Positions 3,156 through 26,621 of a DNA stretch of 32,000 nucleotides are shown piece after piece; position 1 is the stretch's first letter, and every line of letters starts with the position of its first letter. The stretch lies in NCBI GenBank assembly GCA_025839675.1, contig CP104013.1, forward strand, positions 4,590,001-4,622,000. Reading direction: 5' to 3'. A model generated the notes under the pieces. It saw only the letters and a list, made by a program, of their open reading frames with translations, was not told where the DNA came from and made no database searches. Position numbers and translations under genes: made by a program. This stretch comes from Candidatus Lokiarchaeum ossiferum. GTDB taxonomy: Archaea > Asgardarchaeota > Lokiarchaeia > Sigyniarchaeales > Promethearchaeaceae.

Positions 3156-3406
3156 GAGAGGGTGGTTAATAAATTGGGTATTTGCTATGCAAATTTCACC
3201 TCGTACATTCTATATTAAAATCATTTGCTTACTCTTTATAAAGTCCTAGGTTTAGATGCTTTTCTTGTTTATAATCCAAGTAAGAATTAAATGAACGAAA
3301 TCAAAACATCGATGAAATTCGCATAACCTATTTAAGTAGAAAAAATGAAGATATATTAGAATTCTGTTTTCTGATTGGGTAAAATCAATTGGAATGGCAG
3401 TTTTTT

Positions 3407-3411
3407 GGAGG
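3407..3411 (+). promoter_or_regulatory. Shine-Dalgarno-like GGAGG 8 nt upstream of the histone ATG (3420)
   Basis: GGAGG is read directly at 3407-3411. It supports the 3420 start over the 3375 start given in the ORF track. Confidence 0.5.
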
Positions 3412-3419
3412 ATTTAATC

Positions 3420-3698
3420 ATGGCAAAGAAAAAAGCAGCAGCGAAGAAAAAAGCACCTGCTAAAAAGAAAGTCGTCAAATCGACTTCTGAAAATCGTAGT
3501 TCTTTTATCTCGAAAGCACCAGTACGTCGGTTAATGAAGGGAGAAGGGGCTGGTTTAGTTAGTGATGAAGCAGTCAAGCTACTCATTGAACAACTTGAAA
3601 AAAATGCAATTCAAACCACCAAAAAAGCTTTAACTCTAGTCAAAGATGAAAAGCGAAAACGTTTAACTGCAGAAGATATTACCTGGGCAACCCGATAA
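3420..3698 (+). CDS. Archaeal histone-fold protein with ~33-aa lysine/alanine-rich N-terminal tail
   Basis: The core SKAPVRRLMKGEGAGLVSDEAVKLLIEQLEKNAIQTTKKALTLVKDEKRKRLTAEDITWA aligns by eye to the HMf-type histone fold: DNA-binding Arg near the start, then the 'RK..L.AEDI' end of helix 3. It is preceded by MAKKKAAAKKKAPAKKKVVKSTSENRSS. A GGAGG sits 8 nt upstream of this ATG. Confidence 0.85.
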   Translation: MAKKKAAAKKKAPAKKKVVKSTSENRSSFISKAPVRRLMKGEGAGLVSDEAVKLLIEQLEKNAIQTTKKALTLVKDEKRKRLTAEDITWATR

Positions 3699-4596: not shown

Positions 4597-4672
4597 TGGT
4601 AGGGAAACAGGGACTTGAACCCTGGACTTCTTGCGTGTGAGGCAAGCGAAATAACCACTAGTCTATTCCCCT
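4597..4672 (-). tRNA. tRNA-Val (anticodon CAC), 3' CCA encoded
   Basis: The reverse complement folds by hand into a 76-nt cloverleaf, AGGGGAA-UA-GACU-AGUGGUUA-UUUC-G-CUUGC-CUCACAC-GCAAG-AAGUC-CAGGG-UUCAAGU-CCCUG-UUUCCCU-A-CCA. The acceptor stem has 7 bp (A1-U72, one G-U). The anticodon and T stems are perfect 5-bp stems. U8, U33, G18G19 and the T-loop UUCAAGU are present. The D stem has only two Watson-Crick pairs. Confidence 0.85.
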
Positions 4673-5741: not shown

Positions 5742-5839
5742 GTTGAGTTAAAAAAATCTTGTTAAAGATATTAAAGTAGAAAAAATAATAGTATTATGCA
5801 GTAATCATTTTTTATTTGTAAAAGTTGGAGCTCGAATCT

Positions 5840-6382
5840 ATGTCAGAAATCCCTGTTATGAAAGTTTTCTTTGCTGGAGAAGGTGGTGTTGGTAAATCTA
5901 CTATGGTAGAGCGAATTGTGACCGGAATTTTCAACGATAAACTAATCATGACAATTGGGGTGAATCATGCTGTAAAGACCATGAAGACAGATGATGGGAG
6001 AGATGTCACTCTTCAAATCTGGGATATTGGTGGTGAAGATCGGTTTCGATTCGTAGTACAAAGTTATGTAAAAGGGTCATCAGCCGGAGTTATTGCATTT
6101 GATACCACGCGGATGTCCACATATTTGCATCTTACTCATTGGTTAGATATCATTCGAGAAACAATACCCTCAGCGCCATTATTTCTTGTTGGGATGAAAT
6201 CTGATCTTGATACTGCAAATTTAGACAGAGATCAATATAAGGAACTAGTGGAAAAATATCATTTGGAAGAATTAATTTTTACAAGCAGTAAAACTGGAGA
6301 AAATATTGAGGAAACTTTTCAAAAACTTGCAAATTGTTTGCCACAAATTCCTCAGTATTACCGAAAAGCAGAAGAAGCTTAA
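5840..6382 (+). CDS. Rab/Ras-like small GTPase
   Basis: G1 GEGGVGKS; switch-I Thr in MTIGV; G3 WDIGGEDRF; G4 GMKSD; G5 TSSKTG. The overall layout aligns to Rab (TIGV..., LQIWD..., ...RF...YY/YV.G..G.I..FD). GGAG at 5827-5830 lies 9 nt upstream of ATG 5840, which supports that start over TTG 5825. Confidence 0.9.
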   Translation: MSEIPVMKVFFAGEGGVGKSTMVERIVTGIFNDKLIMTIGVNHAVKTMKTDDGRDVTLQIWDIGGEDRFRFVVQSYVKGSSAGVIAFDTTRMSTYLHLTHWLDIIRETIPSAPLFLVGMKSDLDTANLDRDQYKELVEKYHLEELIFTSSKTGENIEETFQKLANCLPQIPQYYRKAEEA

Positions 6383-8051: not shown

Positions 8052-9008
8052 CTATGTTTGAGTTTCGATTTTGTCCAAGTAATTTTGATAAATTTTACGT
8101 TTTGACTCATTTTTTTCATTTTTGACTAAATTTTCTAAAATCTGAAGAATTTCATCTCGAGTGAGTTGGGTAGTGACAAATTTTTTTAATTTCAAATTTT
8201 TCGGATCAGCCAGATATAATTTGAAAAGTATATTTGAAACAGGTTTTCCGATCGCGAGTAATGCTTTAACGGAATGTTCCCGCACTTCATCGTACATATC
8301 ATTTGTTTTTTTGGCTAATTCTGGACCTGCTCGCGGATCTTTCAGTTTTGCTAAAGCTTTGGCAACATCTCTTCTAACATACCAGTATTTATCCATCTTT
8401 AAACGTTCTATTAAGGGTAATACGGCAGATCCATCTCCTATTTTGCCTAATGCGATCGCAGAAGCACATCGTACATCACCATCTGCTTCATCTTCTAATC
8501 CTTTTATTAGGGCTGGAACTCCAGCAGGGTCTTTGATATTTCCAATTGCTTTAATCGCACTAACGATAATATCGCTAAATTTGATTCCTTCTTCTTTCAA
8601 TTTCGCTGAAGCTTCATTTTCTTTTGTATTCGATTGAGCTTTAGGATCACCCACCATGGCATATGATCTTTGATTTGGATCAACCATTTTCATTAGAGAT
8701 GGGATCGCTCGTTTGTCCTTCAATTTTCCTAAACTCCAACAAGCGTTTGCTTTTACATAAGAATCAGGATCTTCTAGAGCTTTATCGAGTGCTTCTAAGA
8801 TGGTGTCAAATTGATCTGGATCTGCGATCTTTCCTAAAGCTCGTGCGGCAGAATTTCTTACTACTGAATCGCTATCGGTTTCAAGTAATTGAATTAAAGT
8901 GGGGATTGCTTCCTTGACTTTTAGATCCCCAATTTTGAAAATACTTTTTTTTTTTTCAGCAAGATCATTTGAATTTAGATTTTTGAGTAACTCTTGAGCT
9001 TCAGACAT
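8052..9008 (-). CDS. HEAT-repeat protein (PBS-lyase HEAT-like repeats)
   Basis: The ~31-aa unit recurs: D..VR..AA.ALG.IGD..A...L. Instances are SVVRNSAARALGKIADP, YVKANACWSLGKLKDKRAIPSL, DVRCASAIALGKIGDGSAVLPLI and YVRRDVAKALAKLKDPRAGPEL. Confidence 0.85.
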   Translation of the reverse strand: MSEAQELLKNLNSNDLAEKKKSIFKIGDLKVKEAIPTLIQLLETDSDSVVRNSAARALGKIADPDQFDTILEALDKALEDPDSYVKANACWSLGKLKDKRAIPSLMKMVDPNQRSYAMVGDPKAQSNTKENEASAKLKEEGIKFSDIIVSAIKAIGNIKDPAGVPALIKGLEDEADGDVRCASAIALGKIGDGSAVLPLIERLKMDKYWYVRRDVAKALAKLKDPRAGPELAKKTNDMYDEVREHSVKALLAIGKPVSNILFKLYLADPKNLKLKKFVTTQLTRDEILQILENLVKNEKNESKRKIYQNYLDKIETQT

Positions 9009-9111: not shown

Positions 9112-9138
9112 AAATAAAATGCATAAACAAAACACTTG

Positions 9139-10218
9139 ATGGGAAAAAAAAAAAATGTTAAAGTGTCTGATTCTTTAGAGGATTTATTTGGAGTGGAATC
9201 AAGTGAAAGAAATGACAATACGGATACGAAAAATCAACCGACTTCAATAAAAGAAAGATTACAACCAAAAAAGACACATGCAGCTACAAAAAAAAGTAAA
9301 TCTCATCGAATGTTAAATATTCCTCAGCTCACTGGAACAGAAATGATTGAATGTCCTCATGAAATCGATTCAGTTTTTATTACTCAAAAAGCCTTTGATG
9401 ATATAATAATGATGGCTCGGGCAATAAACGAAATTAGTCGAGAAAGATGGGGATCTGATTCTCAAAAGTTGGAAGTTTTTTGTTATGTACTCACTAATGA
9501 ATCAGATTTTAAAAATGATTTTCCTGCACGAATTTCGGAAATTTATATCCCTCATCATTCTGCATCTGAGACTGCCGTGAATGTTTCAACTGAAGCAGTA
9601 ATAGAAGTGGGTGAATATATTAAAGAAAATAAAAAAATTTTGCTTGGTTGGGCTCATAGCCACGGACACTTTAAAGTTTATAGTTCTAAAACCGATGAGC
9701 AAAACCATAAAGCATTGTTAAATGATACCTCGAATTATATCACTCTAGGGCACTTTAAGATAAAATATTCTTATGGAATTACTGTTATTGAAGATGGAAC
9801 TCATTTGGGTGTTATTTTGAGTCAATATCCTTGTGGACATATTGGACGAGTTGAAGACACATCCTTTGATATACAAGGGCCTCGATATTCAAGCAAAGAG
9901 AAAGAAAATCGTTATTTGCAAATTAAGGAACAACTGGAAGATCGCGTTGATCTAGTTCGCCCTTCTATTCAACCTTCCCGGGAAGATTCATTGAAAAACA
10001 TTTCTGAAGAATTTGTTTCTGAATATATACGAAACTTAAGGAAAGCGAAAAATTTATTGTATGATAAACTTCCCGACGATATGGACAAACATTTCGAGCT
10101 CTTTCAACGTGTTTTGCAAGAATATGACACACTCCTAATGAGTACTGCTGAGGAAAGTTTTACAAATGTGTCCGAAAAACTTTTGTCGGCGATGAAACAA
10201 TATAATAACAGTATTTAA
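9139..10218 (+). CDS. JAMM/MPN+ domain metalloprotease (Rpn11/AMSH/CSN5-type active site) with disordered N-terminus and helical C-terminal extension
   Basis: Complete JAMM motif: E113 (KLEVFCYVL), then 61 residues later H-S-H-x7-S-x2-D in GWAHSHGHFKVYSSKTDEQNH (nt 9655-9696). Residue numbers follow the track ORF starting at 9136. About 70 N-terminal residues are K/S/T/E-rich. The C-terminal ~120 aa look helical. Confidence 0.8.
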   Translation: MGKKKNVKVSDSLEDLFGVESSERNDNTDTKNQPTSIKERLQPKKTHAATKKSKSHRMLNIPQLTGTEMIECPHEIDSVFITQKAFDDIIMMARAINEISRERWGSDSQKLEVFCYVLTNESDFKNDFPARISEIYIPHHSASETAVNVSTEAVIEVGEYIKENKKILLGWAHSHGHFKVYSSKTDEQNHKALLNDTSNYITLGHFKIKYSYGITVIEDGTHLGVILSQYPCGHIGRVEDTSFDIQGPRYSSKEKENRYLQIKEQLEDRVDLVRPSIQPSREDSLKNISEEFVSEYIRNLRKAKNLLYDKLPDDMDKHFELFQRVLQEYDTLLMSTAEESFTNVSEKLLSAMKQYNNSI

Positions 10219-10310: not shown

Positions 10311-11747
10311 GTGGTCAGAAGGTCTAGTGGTGTAAAATCTATGGTTACTCAAAAAAAATTCTTTAAGTGTAATTCATGTGGTCTGGAACAAAATCTAGAT
10401 CAAAGCGTTCATATCACGTTAAAATATTGTGTTAGCTGTTATAATAAGGAGCAAATTCATCGAGAATCAATGCGAAAGATCAACATGTATATCGCTTTAC
10501 TAAAGGAAAAAAATAAATATTCCAAAATAAGGCGACAAAAAATCCAAGATATTATAAGAATCAATGAACTCATCTTACCCTTGACTATTTTTCAGCTCGA
10601 AGACGGTGAAGTGCTGGATTACTTACATGAATCAAGAAGAAATGCTTTTAAATCTGGATTAAAACAAATCACAGAAAAATATAACCTCTCGTTAAATCCC
10701 GATATTATCACTCATGAATTAATAAACAAGTTGGAACCAATTTGGAAATTTAGACGGGTACCTACTAGCCAAAAACTCGATGAACGTTTATCCCCTTTAG
10801 ATCCGTTTATTGATAAACCCATTAAAGAAAAGCAACTGTTTTTCAAGGATATTAAAAAAGCAATTACAATGCCCTATTTTACCAAAGTGAAAGGAAAATA
10901 CTTAATAAAACAAATGGCACCATTTAAATTCAAAGATTCCTATATTTTAAAGACAATTAAGACATATCGAAAGGCAATAGAGAAAGCCGCGACCCAACCC
11001 GAACAATTCAGACGGTTTTTGAAAGCTCTTGGGATGAATTGTCAATTCCAAACAATTGATGATCGGTTAAAGTTGGGGATTCAAGAGTACGCTAGAGATG
11101 TATCTGAGGATCAAATCAAAATTTTAACAAATCGAATGATCTCTGAAATAGATCAAGCTGAAAATTCCTTCTTAATTCCAAATATTGCGAAGCATATTAT
11201 GGATAATCATGAACGTTTATTTGAAAAATGGTTTTGCTATATTTTACCCTTTGATAAAAGCCGGTTTATGTCTGTTCAAGCAAAAACTGGGAGTCGGACA
11301 GATTTTGTTGTACGACTTCAATATCATTTTAGAAAATATGAGCTAAAAATGATCTATGATGCTCTTTGGGAAAGTTCTGAATATTTAGTTCGTGCAAAAA
11401 CTGAACAAAAATTAGCAAAAATAAAGAAAGATTCATCTCTTGCTCCTGAACAGAAAAAATTGAAAATTGCGAAAGCCCTTGAACGTTTAGAAAAAAATCT
11501 TGCTGCTGATAAATTACAGCAAACTCGGGAACAAAATGCTAAAGGATCCCCAATGGTCGCCCGATTTTTACTTTTGAACTCAGAAAAAGCGTTTAATATG
11601 GTGTTAGATAAAATCATTCGATATCATTATAAGCGATTGAATCTAACAACTCCTGTGAGTTACATCACCAATGTTCTTGAATCTGGTGCCGAAGAAAAGA
11701 AAGGGGAATTAAAAGCTTTTTACATGATTCAATCTCGTGAATGGTAA
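10311..11747 (+). CDS. Hypothetical protein with N-terminal CxxC...CxxC zinc ribbon
   Basis: 478-aa ORF (GTG 10311; alternative ATG 10341). KCNSCGLEQNLDQSVHITLKYCVSCYNKE is a four-Cys zinc-ribbon pattern. The rest is a K/E/I-rich helical sequence with no motif I recognise. Confidence 0.6.
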   Translation: MVRRSSGVKSMVTQKKFFKCNSCGLEQNLDQSVHITLKYCVSCYNKEQIHRESMRKINMYIALLKEKNKYSKIRRQKIQDIIRINELILPLTIFQLEDGEVLDYLHESRRNAFKSGLKQITEKYNLSLNPDIITHELINKLEPIWKFRRVPTSQKLDERLSPLDPFIDKPIKEKQLFFKDIKKAITMPYFTKVKGKYLIKQMAPFKFKDSYILKTIKTYRKAIEKAATQPEQFRRFLKALGMNCQFQTIDDRLKLGIQEYARDVSEDQIKILTNRMISEIDQAENSFLIPNIAKHIMDNHERLFEKWFCYILPFDKSRFMSVQAKTGSRTDFVVRLQYHFRKYELKMIYDALWESSEYLVRAKTEQKLAKIKKDSSLAPEQKKLKIAKALERLEKNLAADKLQQTREQNAKGSPMVARFLLLNSEKAFNMVLDKIIRYHYKRLNLTTPVSYITNVLESGAEEKKGELKAFYMIQSREW

Positions 11748-11830: not shown

Positions 11831-12748
11831 ATGGAAAATATTACTTTTACTGATCATGCTGGTGTTAAAATCACCGCATATAAATGGGTCCCAAAAACTG
11901 GGATAACTCCGAAAGGTCTTATTCAGATTGTTCATGGCATGGCTGAACATGCCTTGCGATATGATTTCTTAGCAGAAGCACTCACAGATGAAGGATTTGT
12001 GGTATATGCTGAAGACCATCGAGGTCACGGGAAAACGATGGAATCGATGGATAAGGCAGGATCTTTGAATCCTGATGGGTGGGATGGTGTTGTCAAAGAT
12101 TTAAAACAATTAAAGGATATAATGGTAAAAGATTATCCTGATTTACCAGTGTTTATGTTTGGCCATAGTTGGGGATCATTTTTAACTCAAGATTTCATCC
12201 AAAAATGGGGTGATGAATTAAAAGGTATTATATTAAGTGGAACTGCAGGAAAACAAGATACTCTTGGCTTATTAATTCTTATTGCTAAGTTACAAGTAAA
12301 ATTGCATGGTTCTGATACTCCTGCCGGATTAATATATAAGTTAGGTGTGGAACCTTTAAATAGAAGATTTGAACCTGCTAAAAGTGCTTCAGCATGGTTA
12401 TCAACTGTGGAAGAAGAAGTTCAGAAATATGATGACGATCCATTATGTGGTTATAGACCTCCAAATGGGTACTACTTGGAGATGGCATATGCTATGAAAC
12501 GTTTATGGAAAAAAGAAAATGAATCCAAGATTCCTAAAAATCTGCCAATTTATATGATCGTGGGTGAACTTGATCCAGTGGGGAATTTTACAAAAAATTT
12601 CATGCCCCTAGTTCATCGCTATCAAAATCAAGGAATTGCAGATGTGAGATACAAAATATATAAAGATGCTCGTCATGAAATTTTGAATGATTATTGTCGT
12701 AAAGAAGTGGTTCAAGACACTGTTAACTGGTTTAATAATCATATGTAA
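11831..12748 (+). CDS. Alpha/beta hydrolase, lysophospholipase / monoacylglycerol-lipase-like
   Basis: HGMAEHALRYDFLAEALTDEGFVVYAEDHRGHGKT (oxyanion HG plus DHRGHG), nucleophile elbow GHSWGS, and distal D...H (GELDPV ... ARHEILND). This is the typical PldB/MGL-type layout. Confidence 0.85.
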   Translation: MENITFTDHAGVKITAYKWVPKTGITPKGLIQIVHGMAEHALRYDFLAEALTDEGFVVYAEDHRGHGKTMESMDKAGSLNPDGWDGVVKDLKQLKDIMVKDYPDLPVFMFGHSWGSFLTQDFIQKWGDELKGIILSGTAGKQDTLGLLILIAKLQVKLHGSDTPAGLIYKLGVEPLNRRFEPAKSASAWLSTVEEEVQKYDDDPLCGYRPPNGYYLEMAYAMKRLWKKENESKIPKNLPIYMIVGELDPVGNFTKNFMPLVHRYQNQGIADVRYKIYKDARHEILNDYCRKEVVQDTVNWFNNHM

Positions 12749-15700
12749 TATTATTTCTGTTTTTCTTTTTTCTTCATTCATTACCCTTTATTCAGAAATT
12801 TTTTATTCAAGATGCTCACAAATAAGCATAGGTATTAAAAACCGAATTTCAAGTTATAAATCATCCATAAATTCGGTTGTTGGTGAAGCAATTTTGGAAA
12901 AAACACAATTTGATCGAAAACAAGAGATACTTTCTGCATCAAAGAATAGGATTGAGCAACAATTGAATGATCTGGAAAAATCTTTGAAAATTCGAGACCA
13001 GAAAATCCATAAATTACAGAAATATCTAAAGGAAAAGCATCGGGAAATTGTGGATACTAAAAAGAAAATCAAAAGTCTTGCTCATATTGAAGAACAATCC
13101 AAAGCTCAAATCGATCAAAATATCGAAATGTTGACTTGGTTGGTGGATTCTGTAGATGGAACAGTAACTGAACTCAAAGCCAATATGATCCTTAACTCTG
13201 AAAATGCGATCTTAGAAAATATTAGTGATTTTCAAAATTATGTGAAAGATCTGGAAGAGATTATGGAACCATTAGGCGAATGTTCTGCAATTTCCAATCA
13301 AAAAGAATTAAACATGATTACAAATTCTATTGCTTCTACTTTGGAACTTTTTTCAGAAAATATTGATCAATCTATTGATTCTATGTCTGAATTAGTCCAA
13401 AAAGCTGCTGTTGCTGCGGTAGACCGTTCTTCGAAAGAATTTGATGGGTTTATTGAGGATATTCATCAAATTTTTGATACTTTTAATAATATCTTGCAAA
13501 AATTAAAACTTTCAAATTCCACCAAAAAATATCTCGCTTTGGAAGAAATTTATATTGAATCTAATTCGCTATTGGGTGAGATGATTGAATTAAAGAAAAA
13601 ATCATCCACTGAAAATGCTCGGAGGCTCTTATTTAAAAAGGATTTAGATATGCTTTCTCAATTTGGATTATCAAAAGATAAAAATAACCTTCGTAAACAA
13701 TTAATCGAAATGCAAAAGACAAAAAGTGAGATTCAAGAAAAATATCATAAAAAGCAAAATATTCGCGAATCACTGGAAGAAAAAGTTGATTTCATTGAAT
13801 CGGAAAAGGAAACTATTCGTACATGGTTTGAAGCCTTAACTGATGAAGTTGTTGATAATCAGGATACTGCAACTGAGACTTATAATATCATGTATGCAAC
13901 TCTTGATTCCATTCATTCTTCTATTTCTTTTATAAAAGCAGATCTTCGAAATACAAGTGAAGCAACTATTCGATCTATCATAGAAGAATTCTCAAAAAGT
14001 GCAAAAGCCTTTGGTCGTATGGTTGCTATTATTAAAAAATTGGATAAAGTTGTCGATCCAAAAAAAAAGCAAAAGTCAATCGAATTAATTTATCAAAAAT
14101 CTAAGTCTCATATCTCCAAAATTAAAAAAATAGTCTCCCGGTTATCAAAAGAAGTTAAAACTGCTAATCAAAAAGCCATCGAAGAATCTTTCATTGATTT
14201 TAATAAGTTCATTGAAGTGTTTAAAAATAAATTCTATGTTATTCAAGATGCTGTTTCTGCAATCACACTTTCAAGTTCCGCCCAATTGATCCATGATTTA
14301 GAAGATTTAAGTGAAAATCAGCTGGAATCTCGCGAAGAATTACAAAACTTAGATCTCATTTTATCTGAGCTTAAAATTCAACTGGATTCCTATGATGAAA
14401 AAATTCAAGGATTTGAAAATGAACTGAAAATCTTCGGACATTCGGATCGAAAACGAAGAAAGGTTTTAGTTATTACAAAATCGGTTTCAGAGGGTGAAAC
14501 ATGGTTAATGCAAGATGTTACATGGAATGTTAAAAATGATGGAATTGTTGCGTTTGAAGATATTCATCTGAACGATCTTGTTGTTCATAGCCACGAATGT
14601 CTCACATCCAATGTGAATTATGATAAAAAGGAATTTAATTCTTCTCATCAATTAATTTCTTGGAACATCGACACTTTGGATAAAAAAGATCATATAGATA
14701 TTCATTGTCTTCGCCAAGGATTTCGCCCTCTTCATAAAAATAACAAAAATTATACGCGAAACATTAGTACCCCTAGGACTTTTCGATATCGGAATCTTGC
14801 CCAACCCATTTCTTTAACATTCATAGAAAGGGAGGGTGAAGGTGCCATGGTTCTTACCAATACTGGTGTAAGTGATACTATTTGGAATATTTCTTTAGAA
14901 TTTAAAGAGACTTCTGAGGTTTCAGATATCCCTAATGTCAAAATTTTTGGTTTAAAACCTCAACAATCATTTATAAAAAAATATTCATATTCTCGAGCTG
15001 GTTCTTTGAAACCCCGCCTTTTTGAAGCTAGTTCCAAATATCTTGTGGGAATTCGGGAGCAGAGATCAATTCGTTCAGAAAATGAATACAGATGTGAACT
15101 TATTTTTGAAAATAAATCTGAATTTCTGCTTCATTTAACCTCATTCGAAGTTTATGATATTAAGAATCCCAAAACGCCCGTCATTCAGGTTAAAGACCAT
15201 CATCTTGAAATATTGCGTCCTAATTTAGATTTTCGCAAAAATTATGATGTTGAAACAGCATTGGACCCTCCTCAATTTGTCATCGACTATTCATTCACTC
15301 TACATCTTGTGTATGAGTATGACACTACTAGCAAAATTGATCTTAGTGAATTGAAAGAAACTCCTGATCTTATTTACAATAAAGATATTTCTGCTGAAGC
15401 TCTCCAAGAGTTTATTCCAAATTTATATAATCAAAAACAAACTTCAATTGAAATACACCCAGAAATACAAATGATTAATGAGGAAATTGATGCTATACGT
15501 GATCAAATAAAATCACTTGAATCCCAGCTCCAAGAACAAACTATAATGCTTGAAAAGAAACAATCTGATAAAGAAAATTTATTGATTCTCATTAAAAAAG
15601 AAATGCAAGAAGAAAAACTTAAAGAAGAAAAGCGCAAGCAAGAAGCAAAAATTCTTGCTCAGAAGCAAGCTGAGGAGCAACAAAAATTACAAATTGAAAA

Positions 15701-16043
15701 AGAAAAAATTGCTGAAATGAAAGCTAAACTGGCCAAGAAAAAGAAAACACTGGCAAAGAAATCTATTAGTGTGAAAAAAGTAGTGGAAAAGGAAATCGCA
15801 CCAAGGAAAGAAGCTGATAAAAAAAAATCTACTACCAAAAAGAAAAAATCTACTACCAAAAAGAAAAAATCTACTACCAAAAAGAAAAAATCTACTACCA
15901 AAAAGAAAAAATCTTCTACTAAAAAGAAAATATCTAAGAAGAAGAAAACCTCAACAAATAAGAAATCAACCAAGAAGAAGAAAACATCGACCAAAAAGAA
16001 ATCAACGCTTAAAAAAAGTAAACAAAAGAAGTTAAAAACTTGA
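12687..16043 (+). CDS. Giant coiled-coil protein: helical rod (~500 aa) + ~300 aa beta-sandwich-like modules + K/E-rich helix + polybasic STTKKKK-repeat tail
   Basis: 1118-aa ORF. Heptad-like E/K/I/L/N/Q sequence spans aa ~75-600. Strand-like alternating patterns span aa ~600-900 (VTWNVKNDGIVAFEDIHLNDLVV; GAMVLTNTGVSDTIWNISLEF; YRCELIFENKSEFLLHLTSFEVYD). Then come KLKEEKRKQEAKILAQKQAEEQQKLQIEKEK and a K/S/T tail. No P-loop or catalytic motif was seen. The start is uncertain: ATG 12687 overlaps the upstream gene by 62 nt, and in-frame TTG 12894 is the alternative. Confidence 0.8.
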   Translation: MIIVVKKWFKTLLTGLIIICNIISVFLFSSFITLYSEIFYSRCSQISIGIKNRISSYKSSINSVVGEAILEKTQFDRKQEILSASKNRIEQQLNDLEKSLKIRDQKIHKLQKYLKEKHREIVDTKKKIKSLAHIEEQSKAQIDQNIEMLTWLVDSVDGTVTELKANMILNSENAILENISDFQNYVKDLEEIMEPLGECSAISNQKELNMITNSIASTLELFSENIDQSIDSMSELVQKAAVAAVDRSSKEFDGFIEDIHQIFDTFNNILQKLKLSNSTKKYLALEEIYIESNSLLGEMIELKKKSSTENARRLLFKKDLDMLSQFGLSKDKNNLRKQLIEMQKTKSEIQEKYHKKQNIRESLEEKVDFIESEKETIRTWFEALTDEVVDNQDTATETYNIMYATLDSIHSSISFIKADLRNTSEATIRSIIEEFSKSAKAFGRMVAIIKKLDKVVDPKKKQKSIELIYQKSKSHISKIKKIVSRLSKEVKTANQKAIEESFIDFNKFIEVFKNKFYVIQDAVSAITLSSSAQLIHDLEDLSENQLESREELQNLDLILSELKIQLDSYDEKIQGFENELKIFGHSDRKRRKVLVITKSVSEGETWLMQDVTWNVKNDGIVAFEDIHLNDLVVHSHECLTSNVNYDKKEFNSSHQLISWNIDTLDKKDHIDIHCLRQGFRPLHKNNKNYTRNISTPRTFRYRNLAQPISLTFIEREGEGAMVLTNTGVSDTIWNISLEFKETSEVSDIPNVKIFGLKPQQSFIKKYSYSRAGSLKPRLFEASSKYLVGIREQRSIRSENEYRCELIFENKSEFLLHLTSFEVYDIKNPKTPVIQVKDHHLEILRPNLDFRKNYDVETALDPPQFVIDYSFTLHLVYEYDTTSKIDLSELKETPDLIYNKDISAEALQEFIPNLYNQKQTSIEIHPEIQMINEEIDAIRDQIKSLESQLQEQTIMLEKKQSDKENLLILIKKEMQEEKLKEEKRKQEAKILAQKQAEEQQKLQIEKEKIAEMKAKLAKKKKTLAKKSISVKKVVEKEIAPRKEADKKKSTTKKKKSTTKKKKSTTKKKKSTTKKKKSSTKKKISKKKKTSTNKKSTKKKKTSTKKKSTLKKSKQKKLKT
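15828..15932 (+). repeat. In-frame 21-bp tandem repeat (4 identical copies + 1 degenerate) encoding STTKKKK
   Basis: tctactaccaaaaagaaaaaa begins at 15828, 15849, 15870 and 15891 with 100% identity. A degenerate copy (tcttctactaaaaagaaaata) begins at 15912. Further K/S/T-rich decay continues to ~16040. Confidence 0.95.
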
Positions 16044-16174: not shown

Positions 16175-17818
16175 ATGGTAAAGGATGAAGTTGAAGATTT
16201 AATTTATCGATTAAAATTTAAGAACCCAAAAGAAAGGGTTGAACTTATCAATACCCTGGGTAATTCTGGAGATATACGCGCAACTACGCCAATTCTTCAA
16301 CAACTTATCTCTAAAAACGTTGATTTACTCGTAGCATCCATTTTTGCGTTAGGAAAACTAAAAGACGCTAGAGCTGTGTCTTCTTTGGTAGATCTACTCA
16401 ATCATAAAAAAGAGAAGGTAGGCAAGTATGCAGCTCAATCTTTAGGAAAAATTGGAGATCCGAGTGCAGTTGAATCTATGTGTGCTTTATTATTGCAAGT
16501 TAAAATTCCAATTGCTCAATATATCTTGGAATCCCTGGGGATGATAGGTGCCAAAGAAGCAGTTTCTTCGATTCTATTGTATATTGAAAAGAAAAAACCA
16601 AAAGAAGAATTATTGGCTACAGCAATTAAGGCTCTATCCTGTATCAAAGATCCCAGCGCAGTTTCTGCAATTATTCCTTATTTAGATGATTCTAATCGAA
16701 ATACTCGCGCATTTTCTGCTGAAGCTTTAGGTATTTCGAAAGATCCAAAAACAATTAAAATTTTGATTGATCATTTATCCGATCCAGATGATTATGTGAT
16801 TGAGAAAATAGTTGAAAGTTTGGGAAATTTAAATCCTTCTTTCAAAGAGAAGTCCAAAGAAGAAATTGTATCCAAGGTGTACTTAAAATTAATCAAAACA
16901 AAAAAAGATTTAGCGTATCAAGAACCAGAAGATTTAATAACTCTCCTTAAAAAAGAGAAGGATTCTGAGTTAAAAGTATTCATTATTCATCAAATAGGGG
17001 AGAAACAAGTTTCAAAAGCCTTAAAACCTCTAGTAAAGATGCAAAAATCAGAAACAAATATTTTTGTTTTAAAAGCTATTCAAGAAGCACTGGATAAATT
17101 GAATTATTTACCCAAAGATCTCGAAAAATATATTAATCAATTTCGTTCAGATGATTTTCAACGAAAATTGAACGCAGTGAGCGCTCTTTCTATGATTCAG
17201 AATGATTCGGTATTTGAAGAACTCTTTTCTTATCTAAAAAACAATTATCAAAATCAAGACGATCAATTTCTATCGGTGAATTCTTCCATTATTGATGCTT
17301 TAAGCAAGTATGAACTTGAAAAAACTATAGAATTCTATAAAAAAATCTATCAAAGTTGTCCAATTGAACTATATGATGCAATAAATGGTGTAATTGAAAA
17401 TTCGATGCATCCTATTGCTAAATCCCTATTATCACAACCTTATCGTTCTGATGGTAGATGGGGGAAACCTCTAAGTTTAATGGACATGGGATTTAAGAAA
17501 GCTGCTAAAAAGGAAGAAAAACATCTAAAAGAACAAGAAAAACTTGAAAAACAAAAAATTCAATCATCAATTAAAGCGAAAGAGGCTTTTGCCATTCAGA
17601 AAGAGAAAGAACAAATCGCTTTAAAAAAAAAAGAGCAAGAAAAATTGCGTCTTGAAACTAAACAAGGGCTGAAAAAGCAAAAAGAACAAAAAAAAAGAGA
17701 TGCATTAAAGGCAAAAGAACTGGAAAAACATAAAAAAGAATTGGCCAAAAGAGAAGCAAAACGTAAGAAGCAGATTGAAAAATCTACATCTGGTAAAAGT
17801 TCAGAAAATAAATCCTAG
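16175..17818 (+). CDS. HEAT-repeat (PBS-lyase-like) protein with C-terminal K/E-rich helical tail
   Basis: Repeats include ERVELINTLGNSGDIRATTPIL, LLVASIFALGKLKDARAVSSLV, KVGKYAAQSLGKIGDPSAVESM and NTRAFSAEALGISKDPKTIKIL. The last ~105 aa are KEEKHLKEQEKLEKQK...KELEKHKKELAKREAKRKKQIEK. Confidence 0.85.
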   Translation: MVKDEVEDLIYRLKFKNPKERVELINTLGNSGDIRATTPILQQLISKNVDLLVASIFALGKLKDARAVSSLVDLLNHKKEKVGKYAAQSLGKIGDPSAVESMCALLLQVKIPIAQYILESLGMIGAKEAVSSILLYIEKKKPKEELLATAIKALSCIKDPSAVSAIIPYLDDSNRNTRAFSAEALGISKDPKTIKILIDHLSDPDDYVIEKIVESLGNLNPSFKEKSKEEIVSKVYLKLIKTKKDLAYQEPEDLITLLKKEKDSELKVFIIHQIGEKQVSKALKPLVKMQKSETNIFVLKAIQEALDKLNYLPKDLEKYINQFRSDDFQRKLNAVSALSMIQNDSVFEELFSYLKNNYQNQDDQFLSVNSSIIDALSKYELEKTIEFYKKIYQSCPIELYDAINGVIENSMHPIAKSLLSQPYRSDGRWGKPLSLMDMGFKKAAKKEEKHLKEQEKLEKQKIQSSIKAKEAFAIQKEKEQIALKKKEQEKLRLETKQGLKKQKEQKKRDALKAKELEKHKKELAKREAKRKKQIEKSTSGKSSENKS

Positions 17819-21608: not shown

Positions 21609-23039
21609 TTATTCTGCTAAATAACCATAGCCTATTAAACGAAATCGATTATGAATCCTACGACTTAACGCAACAATTGATCCTCCAAGTGCACAGATTG
21701 GACGTTTCAATTGAAGACTCACGGAATTATGTTTTCCAATTTTAGAAACAACTCCAGCTGAAAGGGAAGTTCCAACAACAATCATGATTAACTCATTTTT
21801 CGCTATTGGTTTAACACTAATATCCTCTTCTGCTCCTAATACTTTTTCTAATAAGTGAGTTTCAATCTCTACGGTATTTTTTACTTCAGGAAGGGTTTCA
21901 GGTGTTCCAACAACATTTCCAATAAGCTGATCTGTTCGAGTATTGGATGGATCTAATTCAGTTCCAATAGCAATTAGACCTCCTGGACGTGCAGTCTCAA
22001 GTGAATGTTTTCCTTCATAAATACTTTTAACAGTCGTAATTACAGGTTTATATTTTCCACTGTCCGGATTTTTTAACCCAGGACGAATTTCGACTTGATC
22101 CCCAACTGAGATTTGACCTGAGATGATACTTCCTCCCATCACACCTCCAGCGAGATCATCAATCGAAATTCCTGGGCGATTAATATCAAAACTTCGGGCT
22201 ACGTTGAAAAGGAAATCTTCTTCATTTAGATCTTCAAAATCAGGAGATGGTATTATTTCTTCGATTAATTCGGAAATTTTATCAACATTAGCTTGGAAAA
22301 TAGCTGAAGTTGGAATTATTGGTGCATTTTCAGCTATGGTGCCTTTGACGAAACTTTTAATTTGATTGTAATGTTCTATAGCACGTTCTTTTCCTACAGA
22401 ATCTACTTTGTTTTGAACAATTATAATATTTTCAATTTTAGCAATTTCTAGGGCTGCCAAATGTTCTCTTGTTTGAGGTTGGGGGCAATCTTCATTCGCT
22501 GCAACTAACAATACGGCTCCATCCATAAGTGAAGCGCCTGATAACATCGTTGCCATCAAAATTTCGTGTCCAGGGGCATCAACAAAACTAATTCGACGTT
22601 TAAATGCTAATTTTTCGCCACAATCAGGACAATGCCCTTTTGGATCTTTTTTGCTTTTTCGGAGCAAATTAGCGAGTGCTTCAGCAATCACTCGATTGCA
22701 CTTAGGACATTGCATAACTGCAGCTTCAGCATACCCTAATTTAATAGTAATTCCACGATTTATCTCATCAGCATATTTTTCTGTCCAAGTTCCGGAAAGG
22801 GCTTTAACTAAGGTTGTTTTTCCATGGTCAACATGGCCGACCAACCCTACGTTACAAGATGATTGAATGAAATCTGATTTTTTAGAAGATTTTTTAGTTG
22901 TTTTTTTCTTTGTTGTGGTTTTTTTCTTTGAAGTTTTCTTCTTAGCAGTTGTTTTTTTCTTTTTTTCTTCGGGAACGACACCTAAGTCTTCTGCTGAAAG
23001 ATCATCTTCGGCTACTGTTTTTTTCTTTTTCTTTGCCAT
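21609..23039 (-). CDS. eif2g: Translation initiation factor aIF2 gamma subunit with ~57-aa lysine-rich N-terminal extension
   Basis: GHVDHGKTTL (G1), DAPGHE (G3), NKVD (G4), and the zinc knuckle CPKC...CPDC inserted in the G domain. Domains II/III run to ...RLIGYGYL. The N-terminus is MAKKKKKTVAEDDLSAEDLGVVPEEKKKKTTAKKKTSKKKTTTKKKTTKKSSKKS. No alternative in-frame start exists before the G1 motif. Confidence 0.95.
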   Translation of the reverse strand: MAKKKKKTVAEDDLSAEDLGVVPEEKKKKTTAKKKTSKKKTTTKKKTTKKSSKKSDFIQSSCNVGLVGHVDHGKTTLVKALSGTWTEKYADEINRGITIKLGYAEAAVMQCPKCNRVIAEALANLLRKSKKDPKGHCPDCGEKLAFKRRISFVDAPGHEILMATMLSGASLMDGAVLLVAANEDCPQPQTREHLAALEIAKIENIIIVQNKVDSVGKERAIEHYNQIKSFVKGTIAENAPIIPTSAIFQANVDKISELIEEIIPSPDFEDLNEEDFLFNVARSFDINRPGISIDDLAGGVMGGSIISGQISVGDQVEIRPGLKNPDSGKYKPVITTVKSIYEGKHSLETARPGGLIAIGTELDPSNTRTDQLIGNVVGTPETLPEVKNTVEIETHLLEKVLGAEEDISVKPIAKNELIMIVVGTSLSAGVVSKIGKHNSVSLQLKRPICALGGSIVALSRRIHNRFRLIGYGYLAE

Positions 23040-23176: not shown

Positions 23177-26086
23177 GTGAAATGTATGCCACAAAGCAAT
23201 AAGGATGTTATTTCTGAACTATTTGATGATATAGACAATCAAATTTCTTCAAAACAATATGATAAAGCAGTTGATTTAATTGGTTCTTTATTAATGGAAC
23301 ATGTTTTTCATAAAAGTGAGAAATTCTTAGCCAAATGTTTGGAATTAATTAATATCATTTGTGATAAAACAAATTATACTGTCGATACTATCACCGAATT
23401 TATCGCACCATTATTAGATCATGAGGAATATTGGGTTCGACAAGATGTTCTTGGCATACTAAAAAAAATATATCCTTCGGTTTCCCTAGGCAAGTTTGAT
23501 TCTCTAATTGAAAAATGTGAAGCTAAATTATTTGATCCTGATAAGAAAGTCCGAGAAATAGCAGTATCTTTAGTTGCTACTATTATTAAGAAATCATATA
23601 CTGATTATCCCGATATTTATTTGACATATTGTCGTATGTTTGATGATGACTCTTGGAAAGTTCGTGCTAAATCGTTGGAAGGAGTATTAGAATTTTTAAC
23701 TCCTGAGTCAAATCCTCCTGTTGATTTAATCAATGCACTCAAGGAAAACTTGACCCATTTATTTAAAGATCCTGATGAAGAAATTCGAGGATTTGCTTCC
23801 GAAGTGATGAAAGCATTATGTTTTCATATGGAATCTGATGAGATTATTACGATTTTGCAACCAATTCTTGAGGATGATGATTGGGAAATCCGAGAAAAGG
23901 GTATTTGGATAATTGGAGAGATTGGTTATCTTTATTTCAGTGAATTTGAGGTATTATTTAATATAATGATATCGCTATTTTCTGATCAAATCATGATGAT
24001 CCAGACAAAGGTGATTGATGCTTTTGTTAAGATTGGAAAAACTCAAAGTAAAAATCTATTTCGCTTGTTTTTGGATTATTTATCCAGTATATGTAATATA
24101 GCTGAATGTAAAGATCAAGAAGATGGAATTTCGGAAACATTAATTTTCATTTCTCTTCAAAATATGAAAAAATTGCTTCCTATTCTAATCATTGAATTAC
24201 AAAACCCAATACAAATCATCCGTGATATCATTGCGAATTGTTTATTAAAAATATATATGGAAAAACCCGACGCTTTCGAAGAAGAACTCTATAAAATGTT
24301 TCAAGGCTTAGATCCTGAAGATTGGCGTCAACGAAAGCAACATATTAGTTTGGTGGGAGATTTAGCTTATATTTTACATATTCAATCTGTAGCAATATGG
24401 ACTGCAATCAATTTAAAAAACTGGCAATCTCTAGAAAAGGATTTGGATGTATTAGATGAGATAGAAAATTCGTTGTCTAAAATTAAGAATGTATATGAGA
24501 ATATTGATACTGAAATACAAGAAGTTGAAAAGCGAAAAATTTCCTTTTATAAAGGATTAGACAAATTCCAATCCCTTTCTACAAATCTTCGAGGAAAAAC
24601 CGAGCAGCTTATTATCAAGAAGAAATTTAATGATGCGGAGGTTCTCTTGGAAGAAGAAGGAAATAGAATTTCCGAAAAACTCAACGAATTTGAAAAGATC
24701 TTGTATGAATCCGAGTTTAAGCGTTTTTCTGTCGATATTTTGCAAGATTTCAAAGAAATTAAAGAAGAGATCTTGGAAAATATCTCTGATATTAAGGCTG
24801 TTATGTTCAATCAAATATGTGATGGACGTGCGGAATATTTAGAAGATCTTCAGGATGTTGTAAAAAATATTGAAGAATCTATTTTAGATGTTAAAAATGA
24901 TTATCAATTTGTTTTGAACTTAGAAAAGAAAATTGAGAACTTAGATTATCAAAATGACCCCTCCAAGATTGAATCCTTTCTAGATCGCATTTCCCATATT
25001 AGAGAGAAGTTGTACACCTTGGAATTCAAGATTGGACAAACTTGGTTAAATAATTTGGAATTTAAAGAATTTCTAAAAGAAGTGACAATATATTGGGTTG
25101 ATGTAAAAATTGAGGTTCAGCAGTATATTGGCAACATTTTCCAGAAGTTTAATTTATTACAATCTGAAATCGATGGGACCAATGGAGAATATTCCGATCT
25201 GAAGCGTAAAATTACCTTCAATTTTCTCAATTCAAACTTACAAAATATTATTTTGCAAGCTGTGCAGAGCCAACGGGATGTGCTTGAACGATTTGATTCT
25301 ATTACTGAGCCGATATACCAAGAAATTAAAAAACGAAGGTTTAAAGAAGCTCATCATCTGGTATCTCTTACCATCAATAATTTATATAATACAATTGAAA
25401 ATTACAATAAAGAAATTAACCATATTTATAATGATTTAGATAAAATTAATCTTTCAGCGGAAGCGTTAGCTGAAGTGCGAAATTATGTGAATAATTGGGC
25501 TGATGTAAAAGATTCACTTATTGAAAAAATTCGATCTTTCCAAAAAGAAGTTGAAGACGAATTGTTTATTCAAGAAGTTCGCGAGTATTTGAAATATATG
25601 AATCCGATTCCATTGGATCGTCTAGAGAAAGCCCTTTCAATACAAAAGAAGCATTTGAAGGATCGCTTATTTGCTTTAATCGAAGATCGTACTCTCCATG
25701 CAGAAATTCACAATGAAGAATTAATCATACCTGAACGTCCTTTAGGTGAAAATCTGTTGTCTTTCTCCCGTAAGGTTGAGATTATTGGTTCAAGAATAAC
25801 ATTTAATCTACGTATTTATAACCCTACCAAGTTTTTCCTCAATGATATGGGATTGATCTTCATTTTTCCAGAGTTTTTAAACCTTCAAAAGGAAGACAGC
25901 GATTTAACTGAGATTTTTATTCGGGAATTTGAACCAGAAGCAATCAGAGTCATACAGTGGAATTTTCGTTTGGAAAAACAAAATGAAAAGAAGTACGAAG
26001 TCAAAAAATGGTTGTTAAATGTGTCTTACCGCAACCCCTTCGATGAGATAACAACATTCCAGAAAGAGATGGAAATTATTTTTTAA
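23177..26086 (+). CDS. Large HEAT-solenoid / helical-rod / winged-helix-like / beta-sandwich protein
   Basis: 969 aa (GTG 23177 or ATG 23186). HEAT-type repeats: EEYWVRQDVLGILKKIYP, DPDKKVREIAVSLVATIIKK, DDDSWKVRAKSLEGVLEFL, DPDEEIRGFASEVMKAL, DDDWEIREKGIWIIGEIG. E/K/I/N-rich helical rod spans aa ~400-790. PIPLDRLEKALSIQKKHLKDRLFALIEDRTLHAEIHNEELII spans nt ~25568-25732. Strand-like C-terminus: RITFNLRIYNPTKFFLNDMGLIFIF, AIRVIQWNFRL, WLLNVSYRN. Confidence 0.85.
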   Translation: MKCMPQSNKDVISELFDDIDNQISSKQYDKAVDLIGSLLMEHVFHKSEKFLAKCLELINIICDKTNYTVDTITEFIAPLLDHEEYWVRQDVLGILKKIYPSVSLGKFDSLIEKCEAKLFDPDKKVREIAVSLVATIIKKSYTDYPDIYLTYCRMFDDDSWKVRAKSLEGVLEFLTPESNPPVDLINALKENLTHLFKDPDEEIRGFASEVMKALCFHMESDEIITILQPILEDDDWEIREKGIWIIGEIGYLYFSEFEVLFNIMISLFSDQIMMIQTKVIDAFVKIGKTQSKNLFRLFLDYLSSICNIAECKDQEDGISETLIFISLQNMKKLLPILIIELQNPIQIIRDIIANCLLKIYMEKPDAFEEELYKMFQGLDPEDWRQRKQHISLVGDLAYILHIQSVAIWTAINLKNWQSLEKDLDVLDEIENSLSKIKNVYENIDTEIQEVEKRKISFYKGLDKFQSLSTNLRGKTEQLIIKKKFNDAEVLLEEEGNRISEKLNEFEKILYESEFKRFSVDILQDFKEIKEEILENISDIKAVMFNQICDGRAEYLEDLQDVVKNIEESILDVKNDYQFVLNLEKKIENLDYQNDPSKIESFLDRISHIREKLYTLEFKIGQTWLNNLEFKEFLKEVTIYWVDVKIEVQQYIGNIFQKFNLLQSEIDGTNGEYSDLKRKITFNFLNSNLQNIILQAVQSQRDVLERFDSITEPIYQEIKKRRFKEAHHLVSLTINNLYNTIENYNKEINHIYNDLDKINLSAEALAEVRNYVNNWADVKDSLIEKIRSFQKEVEDELFIQEVREYLKYMNPIPLDRLEKALSIQKKHLKDRLFALIEDRTLHAEIHNEELIIPERPLGENLLSFSRKVEIIGSRITFNLRIYNPTKFFLNDMGLIFIFPEFLNLQKEDSDLTEIFIREFEPEAIRVIQWNFRLEKQNEKKYEVKKWLLNVSYRNPFDEITTFQKEMEIIF

Positions 26087-26129: not shown

Positions 26130-26621
26130 TTACATGTAAAAGGAAGCGCCAGGATCTTCGTCTTCGTCATCCTCGTCATCATCTTTCTTCTTTTGACGCT
26201 TTCCAAATAGTTGATCCATCATGCTTCGGGAAATTTGTTCCATCATTTTTGGATCGAGACCCATTTTTTCAAGATCTTTTAAATTTCCTCCTCCGAATGG
26301 CATGATCTGAACTCCTACCTTTTTATTTGCCATAGCTTGTTTTTTTTGACGGATCATCTTTTCTTGTTGAATTTTCCGCTTCTTGATTTCCTTTCCATGT
26401 TTCTTTTCCAGAATTTTTTGGAGTCTAGTAATTAGGAGGTTTTCAAGTTCTTCAGCTTCTTTCATGAAAAGTTCTTCTTCTGTCATCTCTTTTTCAATGT
26501 TGTGAATCGATTCTTCAATGCTGGCTTGATCCGGTGCGAATGTTGTTAGGGCTTCAATGCTATGTTGAATATTGGCCCAATTAATCATTGCCCAGGCTGC
26601 GCTGCGTTTCAGTGTTGTCAT
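26130..26621 (-). CDS. Hypothetical helical protein with K-rich centre and acidic C-terminal tail
   Basis: 163-aa ORF in a gap with no competing gene. EELFMKEAEELENLL...KKRKIQQEKMIRQKKQ...GLDPKMMEQISRSMMDQLFGKRQKKKDDDEDDEDEDPGASFYM. No family recognised. Confidence 0.6.
   Translation of the reverse strand: MTTLKRSAAWAMINWANIQHSIEALTTFAPDQASIEESIHNIEKEMTEEELFMKEAEELENLLITRLQKILEKKHGKEIKKRKIQQEKMIRQKKQAMANKKVGVQIMPFGGGNLKDLEKMGLDPKMMEQISRSMMDQLFGKRQKKKDDDEDDEDEDPGASFYM

Follow-up and report, generated by a model that had tools for sequence, protein, structure and literature searches.

The gene NEF87_003957 of Candidatus Lokiarchaeum ossiferum, located in a 32,000-nucleotide stretch of contig CP104013.1 (assembly GCA_025839675.1, positions 4,590,001 to 4,622,000; hereafter the window), encodes a protein whose single chain runs from a HEAT-repeat solenoid through a long helical rod to a PCI-type winged helix and an immunoglobulin (Ig)-like beta-sandwich. 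This architecture is new, is built from known kinds of domain and is limited to a part of the Asgard archaea. It is read here, with somewhat less than even confidence, as that of a modular protein-protein adaptor in the style of trunk, spacer and ear, while membership of the adaptin or of the PCI-complex families is unproven. The same four parts had been named in a first-pass annotation made from the DNA alone, and AlphaFold2 and Pfam agree on this layout.

The position and length of the open reading frame (ORF) were borne out exactly (Table 1). In the public record the protein begins at Met4 (ATG at 23186) and has 966 aa, 100% identical to the ORF; it is encoded on a 6.03-Mb contig and carries the annotation "hypothetical protein"; a literature search on the locus tag found nothing published about the protein. 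Its 26 full-length homologues, at 32-60% identity and almost all of 910-985 aa, keep all four parts, and the mean column identity of their full-length alignment is 59%, which indicates that the gene is real and under selection along its whole length. NEF87_003957 is therefore a real, conserved gene of Lokiarchaeia-type Asgard archaea. Its product is most likely a soluble, acidic, non-catalytic scaffold of about 110 kDa, as far as its composition and domain content tell. A net negative charge is found in every part (trunk -27, rod -19, the winged-helix region also acidic), and the highest 19-residue Kyte-Doolittle mean is 1.49, so that no transmembrane helix is indicated. No enzymatic Pfam family is matched, and an NCBIfam scan matched zero families. 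The earlier picture of a soluble, non-enzymatic multi-domain scaffold, devoid of transmembrane helices and catalytic motifs, thus stands with its four modules.

The distribution of the family was determined by an exhaustive hidden Markov model search of the C-terminal module (winged helix and sandwich) against 1.84 billion cluster representatives at E <= 1e-3. Only 31 representatives were found, most of them of 960-1000 aa and with the same layout, and every named member is an Asgard archaeon (Lokiarchaeum, Harpocratesius, "Promethearchaeota", Lokiarchaeota CR_4 and Sigynarchaeota). When GTDB species genomes were scanned, a further member turned up in Promethearchaeum syntrophicum MK-D1 (55% identity). 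The labelled Asgard lineages other than Loki- and Sigynarchaeota do not have the family, Heimdallarchaeia-labelled records included. A family confined to Sigynarchaeota and Lokiarchaeia-like lineages is more readily explained by lineage-specific shuffling of domains than by a role as ancestor of the eukaryotic complexes.

Six clusters of short forms, 582-613 aa in length (P0048, P0050 and P0063-P0066; e.g. locus L006 3197-4963), consist of HEAT solenoid, PCI winged helix and sandwich and are devoid of the rod. Short and long forms are related in the trunk (BLAST E 1e-9; hhalign probability 92% over 344 columns, from the very N-terminus), and their winged helix and sandwich are also collinear (BLAST E 0.003). 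In the short forms the solenoid adjoins the winged helix, which in NEF87_003957 comes after the last rod helix (761-807). Since the rod-less forms are homologous in both trunk and C-terminal module, the conserved core of the family consists of solenoid, PCI winged helix and sandwich; the rod was either gained by insertion within a clade or lost from the short forms.

The C-terminal pair also recurs outside the family. P0054 (L004 8001-10421), a protein of 806 aa, carries N-terminal Zn-ribbons, about five winged helices of the PCI/UFL1/DDRGK type and an ear-like sandwich, and matches the Pfam families PCI (76.6 bits), DDRGK (E 3e-11) and E3_UFM1_ligase (E 5e-9). The winged helix and sandwich of the scaffold family are collinear with part of it (hhalign probability 89%, E 2.2e-6), and by this profile comparison they are a two-domain module that recurs in P0054. 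The collinearity ties the module to a published class of Asgard multidomain proteins. A separate observation on P0054 is that its C-terminal domain gives a weak match to the NCBIfam family 'Sel_Asgard' (putative selenocysteine system protein; E 3e-10).

The full-length AlphaFold2 model has a mean predicted local distance difference test score (pLDDT) of 85.5, with 903 of the 969 residues at 70 or above, and a predicted template modelling score (pTM) of 0.53, so that the relative placement of the domains is uncertain. This model and the invariant columns are based on an alignment of 24 sequences, and the Pfam counts for full-length members refer to 24 homologues. When aa 785-969 were modelled alone, pLDDT rose to 91.1 and pTM to 0.78; given this better separate model, winged helix and sandwich probably form one rigid head.

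The winged helix is soundly of PCI type at the level of the family, none of the sequence values being strong for NEF87_003957 itself. It opens at the invariant pair N809-P810 and is predicted to fold as a strand, two helices (813-820 and 824-836) and two further strands (843-845 and 848-850). The first-pass annotation had quoted a 45-aa peptide with the spacing of a winged helix as found in PCI domains; the fold holds, and the peptide measures 42 aa (aa 810-851). In NEF87_003957 the Pfam family PCI (PF01399) covers aa 790-847 at E 0.0013 and 19.4 bits, below the gathering score of 22. Across the relatives PCI is the commonest match in the C-terminal module (12/19 members) and is reached by 11 of the 24 full-length members at E<=0.01 (best E 4.9e-7), while the short form P0066, with 24.7 bits, exceeds the gathering score. 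A profile of the winged helix only, compared with PDB sequences, gave a DDRGK1-UFL1 fusion (E 0.0027), eIF3e (0.005), CSN1 (0.016) and UFL1 (0.04), with Rpn5 lower and a few unrelated winged helix-turn-helix proteins interspersed. Furthermore, NCBI labels a C-terminal fragment of one family member as 'PCI domain-containing protein'. The suggested likeness to PCI winged helices is thus upheld by Pfam, by P0066 and by the PDB profile matches.

The C-terminus was predicted as a sandwich of 7-8 strands (pLDDT 91 in the separate C-terminal model) with invariant residues N882 and P898. As had been proposed from the alternation of its residues, it is modelled as neither helical nor disordered, and its structural neighbours include ears. 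Foldseek of the C-terminal model against the PDB returned 14 matches at E <= 1e-3, and about 20 of the top 50 matches are ear-type domains, namely adaptin alpha and gamma ears, GGA GAE, the gamma-COP appendage and the GAE domains of BBS1 and BBS9. The alpha and gamma ears, GGA and gamma-COP matched at E 4e-4 to 3e-3 with template modelling (TM) scores of 0.35-0.57, the last value belonging to the GAE domain of GGA2 and being normalised to the target. The AP2 alpha appendage (1w80_A; E 3.7e-4) superposed with a root-mean-square deviation (rmsd) of 3.2 A over 115 columns at 16% identity, and the BBSome was represented by 6xt9_I (E 9.4e-5) and 6vbu_9 (rmsd 3.4 A over 110 columns). Among 23 sandwiches of the family searched with Pfam, Alpha_adaptinC2 (4/23, best E 1.3e-4) and GAE_BBS1 (2/23) were the most-matching families, all below threshold, and neither was matched by the sandwich of NEF87_003957. 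There is no platform (TBP-like) subdomain, the protein ending with the last strand of the sandwich. As modelled, the fold is closest to adaptin/GAE ears, and homology to adaptins is unproven.

These resemblances can also be explained as convergent by-products of common folds, in which case the protein would be a lineage-specific scaffold joining a generic E-set/CARDB-like Ig domain to a generic winged helix-turn-helix. Non-ear Ig folds are indeed mixed into the Foldseek list (TRAP subunits, MSP, Kir, complement and glycosidase Ig domains). The sandwich profile, when compared with PDB sequences, placed arrestin, factor XIII and cohesin first (E 0.1-0.5, non-significant) and GGA2 GAE only at E 2, and against a set of 5.8 billion proteins it recovered nothing beyond fragments of its own family. 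The 'LRIYNPT' strand is also matched by P0049, a repeat protein of the CARDB/DUF11-like type (E 2.4e-5), weak Pfam matches to DUF11, CARDB and NPCBM_assoc occur among the sandwiches, and the short forms give matches to the winged helices of MarR and FeoC. The absence of the family from labelled Asgard lineages other than Loki- and Sigynarchaeota points the same way. However, no Pfam family matches the winged helix nearly as consistently as PCI, which passes the threshold in relatives, ears reach their share of the top structural matches although the Ig folds of the PDB are overwhelmingly of other kinds, and no other Pfam family matches as many sandwiches as Alpha_adaptinC2 and GAE_BBS1 do. The convergent explanation is considered unlikely, though substantial enough to be kept in view, and the reading as a modular adaptor is preferred.

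The trunk is a generic HEAT solenoid, not one specifically of adaptin type. It was modelled as about 22 short paired helices with pLDDT of about 90, and in NEF87_003957 it matches the Pfam families HEAT (E 7.9e-15), Cnd1 (9.4e-9) and HEAT_2 (8.9e-8). HEAT and HEAT_2 are matched by 24/24 members (best E 1e-18 and 1.1e-13), followed by HEAT_EZ (22/24, 1.2e-9), Cnd1 (21/24, 6.2e-11), GCN1_C (9/24, 5.9e-6), PDS5 (8/24, 2.1e-15), SCD (4/24) and Adaptin_N (3/24, namely P0019, P0021 and P0022; 1.2e-11). Adaptin_N (PF01602) has zero match at E<=1 in NEF87_003957 itself; the highest match among the short forms is that of P0050 (E 3.4e-8). Tandem antiparallel helix pairs with the HEAT consensus are thus evident from Pfam in all members, from the AlphaFold2 solenoid and from Foldseek. 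At least five repeats with the signature D-x-(D/E)-W-x-(V/I)-R had been counted at first; the HEAT repeats are confirmed, but the strict signature occurs once only (DDDWEIR at aa 233), and a looser form, D-x-D/E-x-x-V/I-R, is found at about six places, which begin at aa 81, 120, 156, 198, 233 and 379. Invariant patches are found at DPDEEIRG (198-205), IREKGIWIIGEIG (238-250), MIQTKVIDAFVKIG (274-287) and DWRQRK (382-387). Foldseek of the full-length model returned Integrator INTS4/7, SF3B1, karyopherin-beta2, PP2A-A and CAND1, with AP-3 only at rank 27; all TM scores are <=0.27, and the matches are generic HEAT solenoids only, uninformative on family.

The frequent Cnd1 matches, together with those of PDS5 and SCD, could be taken to place the protein with chromatin- or SMC-associated HEAT proteins of the HAWK kind, its winged helix binding DNA, and ScpB and winged helices of transcription factors do occur among the weak PDB matches of the winged-helix profile. 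The Pfam models Cnd1, PDS5 and SCD cross-match generic HEAT repeats, and a HAWK or condensin reading of the Cnd1 and PDS5 matches was rejected as cross-matching of this kind. Moreover, the net charge of the winged-helix region is negative, neither an SMC nor a kleisin gene neighbours it in the window, and a study devoted to HAWKs detected none in prokaryotes (bioRxiv 10.1101/2024.01.07.573240). An association with chromatin is held to be very improbable.

Among known systems, the protein is most easily compared with the large subunits of clathrin-adaptor (AP1-5) and COPI complexes (alpha, beta and gamma adaptins; beta- and gamma-COP) and with the monomeric GGAs, which likewise combine, in one chain, a HEAT-type solenoid at the N-terminus with an Ig-like domain of ear fold at the C-terminus; with the gamma-adaptin ear and GGA it further shares a sandwich that stands alone, without platform. 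It differs in a shorter trunk (about 430 aa) that is not specifically Adaptin_N, in a folded 365-aa rod and winged helix (aa 443-852, pLDDT about 80-93) in place of an unstructured hinge, and in the absence from the model of the platform subdomain found in alpha, beta and gamma-COP. The sequence similarity of its sandwich to the ears is below threshold. None of the mu/sigma partners is recognisable near the gene: among the window ORFs there was no Clat_adaptor_s or MHD match, and no recognisable longin (sigma- or mu-like) gene lies nearby. The claim of the first-pass annotation that adaptin and PCI layouts meet in one protein survives as a structural likeness, that is, as a PCI-type winged helix and an ear-like fold; an adaptin-specific trunk, a hinge and a platform are not seen.

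A true archaeal proto-adaptin would go further, with trunk and ear homologous to those of AP/COPI, an Asgard small GTPase recruiting the protein to membranes and the ear gathering accessory proteins. Such a protein would be in keeping with the joining of trunk and ear-like sandwich in a single polypeptide, with the Adaptin_N matches of P0019, P0021, P0022 and P0050 and with the Alpha_adaptinC2 matches among the sandwiches. In the genome of L. ossiferum, small GTPases and 'adaptin N heat repeats' eukaryotic signature proteins (ESPs) are enriched (PMC9834061). The N and C domains of adaptin in Asgard archaea have been published as 'not fused to each other' (PMC10307638), and a 2025 preprint counts the combination of Adaptin_N with Alpha_adaptinC2 among the innovations of the eukaryotic ancestor (bioRxiv 10.1101/2025.10.16.682753). 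This origin is nevertheless improbable: NEF87_003957 itself is without an Adaptin_N match, HEAT families other than Adaptin_N are found in a larger number of members, Integrator, SF3B1, karyopherin and PP2A-A outrank AP-3, hinge and platform are lacking, neither a sigma- or mu-like gene nor a conserved GTPase neighbour accompanies the gene, and the family is missing from Heimdallarchaeia-labelled records.

The second point of comparison is provided by the PCI subunits of the 26S proteasome lid, CSN and eIF3 (e.g. eIF3e, CSN1 and Rpn5), in which a helical solenoid is likewise followed by a winged helix matching PCI, a match that holds for the scaffold at family level; in the short forms the two also sit side by side, as they do in PCI proteins. 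In contrast, the solenoid of NEF87_003957 is of HEAT rather than TPR-like type, the rod sits between solenoid and winged helix, and the C-terminal bundle-forming helix of PCI subunits is replaced by the beta-sandwich. With regard to an assembly like lid, CSN or eIF3, the gene for an MPN+ protein in the window (9136-10218) is 13 kb off and unlinked, and nothing pointed to a six-PCI horseshoe or to MPN partners.

A similar mixture of likeness and difference is seen with the UFL1/DDRGK1 arrays, a DDRGK1-UFL1 fusion being the best PDB match of the winged-helix profile. NEF87_003957 has a single winged helix, whereas these systems and the Asgard UFL1-adaptin fusions have arrays; the fusions carry Zn-ribbon, Vps28 or steadiness-box modules where NEF87_003957 has a HEAT trunk and a rod, and no ESCRT or UFM1 genes are found in its window context. 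The GAE domains of the BBSome proteins BBS1 and BBS9 rank near the top of the structural matches to the sandwich, but BBS proteins have beta-propellers and platform domains, and a HEAT trunk and a winged helix are absent from them. Asgard fusions in which UFL1-like regions are joined to adaptin/COPI C-terminal domains were described by Liu et al. (bioRxiv 10.1101/2020.10.19.343400), and Asgard proteins with adaptin appendage, Ig-like and HTH/PCI domains by Makarova et al. (PMC10936438). No description of a protein with the order HEAT, rod, winged helix and sandwich was found in the literature, these two studies included.

The rod was modelled as nine helices of 38, 28, 69, 31, 38, 35, 13, 34 and 47 residues, with pLDDT mostly 80-93, and it probably consists of three consecutive three-helix (spectrin-like) bundles, of which the first two would have the 69-residue helix in common. 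The helix lengths are compatible with what is seen in spectrin-repeat rods, where three-helix bundles of about 106 aa follow one another and have a connecting helix in common, and a weak internal repeat (aa 479-547 against 717-796) was detected by hhalign (probability 77%, E 2e-5). The rod differs from those of the spectrin family in that no significant spectrin-family match was obtained with Pfam for NEF87_003957; Spectrin_Anc-1_2 was matched by a single relative (E 7e-4) among the 24 members. The highest conservation of the protein outside the trunk lies within the rod, at aa 612-650, where 13 positions are invariant (E616, G620, W623, N626, F629, K630, L633, T637, W640, K644, E646, Q648 and Q649). 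Such a concentration suggests an interface rather than a passive spacer, and this stretch is a candidate interface.

If NEF87_003957 is a modular adaptor, its solenoid would hold one partner through the invariant loop patches (198-205, 238-250, 274-287 and 382-387), the rod would act both as a rigid spacer and as the second conserved interface, and the head formed by winged helix and sandwich would recruit further proteins. Recruitment by the head might take place through edge-to-edge pairing of winged helices, as in PCI complexes, or through the binding of short linear peptide motifs, as ear domains do. Several points weigh against this proposal. The weak signals of the sandwich lead equally to Ig domains of the arrestin, factor XIII, DUF11 and CARDB type. 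Winged helices can also bind nucleic acid, and MarR, FeoC and HTH families are weakly matched in the short forms by Pfam. The three-bundle rod is deduced from helix lengths and one weak internal repeat, and the domain arrangement in the full-length model is uncertain. Finally, no conserved operon partner was found among the homologous loci compared, apart from a clade-limited pairing with the gene for aIF2-gamma.

Table 1. Features of NEF87_003957 and its divergent neighbour in the window
Feature	Position	Strand	Basis or remark
Whole ORF	23177..26086	+	969 aa from GTG, stop codon included
HEAT-repeat alpha-solenoid trunk, aa 9-440	23201..24496	+	Pfam, AlphaFold2, invariant columns, Foldseek
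Helical rod, aa 443-807	24503..25597	+	AlphaFold2
Most conserved rod stretch, aa 612-650 (LEFKIGQTWLNNLEFKEFLKEVTIYWVDVKIEVQQ)	25010..25126	+	Invariant columns; candidate interface
PCI-type winged helix, aa 808-852	25598..25732	+	Pfam PCI, PDB profile matches, AlphaFold2
C-terminal Ig-like beta-sandwich, aa 858-969	25748..26083	+	AlphaFold2, Foldseek, weak Pfam in relatives
aIF2-gamma with Lys-rich N-terminal extension	21609..23039	-	Divergent neighbour; context only

The whole window has an archaeal, Asgard-like character; with about 33% G+C, it also encodes a Hef helicase-nuclease, a histone, CdhD, AlaRS, a Ras-family GTPase and two further HEAT proteins. The genes for NEF87_003957 and aIF2-gamma stand head-to-head, 137 bp apart, and the pairing is kept in L. 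ossiferum, MK-D1, Harpocratesius and the P0021 lineage, with differing outer flanks. It is lost in the P0026 lineage (32% identity), in CR_4 and in Sigynarchaeota, where the loci are unrelated, and in L009 aIF2-gamma lies 3 kb downstream of the scaffold gene. As the genomes with the pairing are all fairly close relatives, inherited synteny is its simplest reading.

The pairing would take on functional meaning if the protein were a translation-linked, eIF3-like PCI scaffold, whose acidic HEAT trunk and rod bind the Lys-rich tail of aIF2-gamma and whose winged helix docks on PCI-like proteins or on the ribosome. The persistence of the head-to-head arrangement in four lineages whose outer flanks differ, the presence in those genomes of an aIF2-gamma with a MAKKKKK..DDLSxEDLGI extension and a Lys-rich tract, the strong acidity of the scaffold and the place of eIF3e among the best PDB matches of the winged helix are all consistent with it. 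Yet these four genomes are close relatives that may simply have inherited the synteny, the arrangement is absent in CR_4, Sigynarchaeota and the P0026 lineage, L009 has the scaffold gene but a distant aIF2-gamma that is devoid of the extension, and no other PCI or eIF3-like genes were seen nearby. A role in translation is judged decidedly improbable, and the reading as a modular adaptor is retained.

The aIF2-gamma extension of Lokiarchaeia is an observation in its own right. It spans 55-110 aa, with the conserved MAKKKKK..DDLSxEDLGI followed by a Lys/Thr/Ser-rich tract, and was seen in the window (21609-23039, minus strand) and at L011 2349-3821, L014 2243-3829, L001 8291-9862 and L002 8404-9861; the aIF2-gamma of L009, of 413 aa, is without it. 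The extension is reminiscent of the K-boxes of eukaryotic eIF2-beta. Near the same gene pair lies a Lys/Glu-rich protein of 163 aa (window 26130-26621, minus strand; L002 13191-13688; L001 7754-8242; L014 1686-2174), for which no Pfam or PDB match was found and whose C-terminus, an acidic run followed by DDPGASFY[M/L]-stop, is identical in 4/4 copies. This tail, which resembles a short linear motif, could be a putative ligand of the ear-like domain.

A link of the scaffold to the Ras-like GTPase (5825-6382) and to the MPN+ protein of the window had been suggested in the first-pass annotation. Both are 13-17 kb away and unlinked in other genomes, and when neighbourhood conservation was checked across Asgard loci none was found for either gene, for which reason the link was rejected as unsupported. 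The MPN+ protein (plus strand, 360 aa) has a complete JAMM motif (HSHGHFKVYSSKTD) and a weak Pfam JAB match (E 0.006); its long N- and C-terminal regions are without match, and it is hence a divergent MPN+ protein.

Other genes of the window deserve mention. The histone-fold protein (3375-3698, plus strand, 107 aa) begins its fold at about residue 47, after an N-terminal tail of about 46 residues that is unusual for archaeal histones. Two HEAT/PBS-lyase-type proteins are encoded at 8052-9008 (minus strand, 318 aa; weak Adaptin_N match, E 7e-8) and 16175-17818 (plus strand, 547 aa), and together with the Ras-family GTPase they illustrate the density of ESP-type genes in the L. ossiferum genome. 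ORFs at 12687-16043 (plus strand, 1118 aa) and 10311-11747 (plus strand, 478 aa) match no Pfam family, and L002 has an ORF of 1206 aa at a position syntenic to these large window ORFs. Rfam and tRNA scans of the window gave nothing besides a tRNA-Val at 4597-4672.

The trafficking-type and PCI-type pieces of Asgard archaea have so far been known as separate domains or as ESCRT-linked fusions. What is new here is a conserved protein that unites a HEAT trunk with a PCI-type winged helix and with an ear-like sandwich, and the joining of trunk and ear-like domains in one archaeal chain runs contrary to published summaries. It is improbable that NEF87_003957 is the first archaeal protein with an adaptin-type trunk and ear in one chain, a proto-adaptor assembled from Asgard modules by way of a PCI-type winged helix; if true, it would show how trunk-ear adaptors arose from such modules. 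Since the gene is found in both cultured genera of Lokiarchaeia in which it was detected (P. syntrophicum MK-D1 and Ca. L. ossiferum), experiments on its partners and localisation are feasible. Should the ear or the winged helix turn out to recruit defined partners, the protein would offer a concrete handle on the pre-eukaryotic origin of modular adaptors; if not, it would be one more case of the domain shuffling specific to Asgard archaea.

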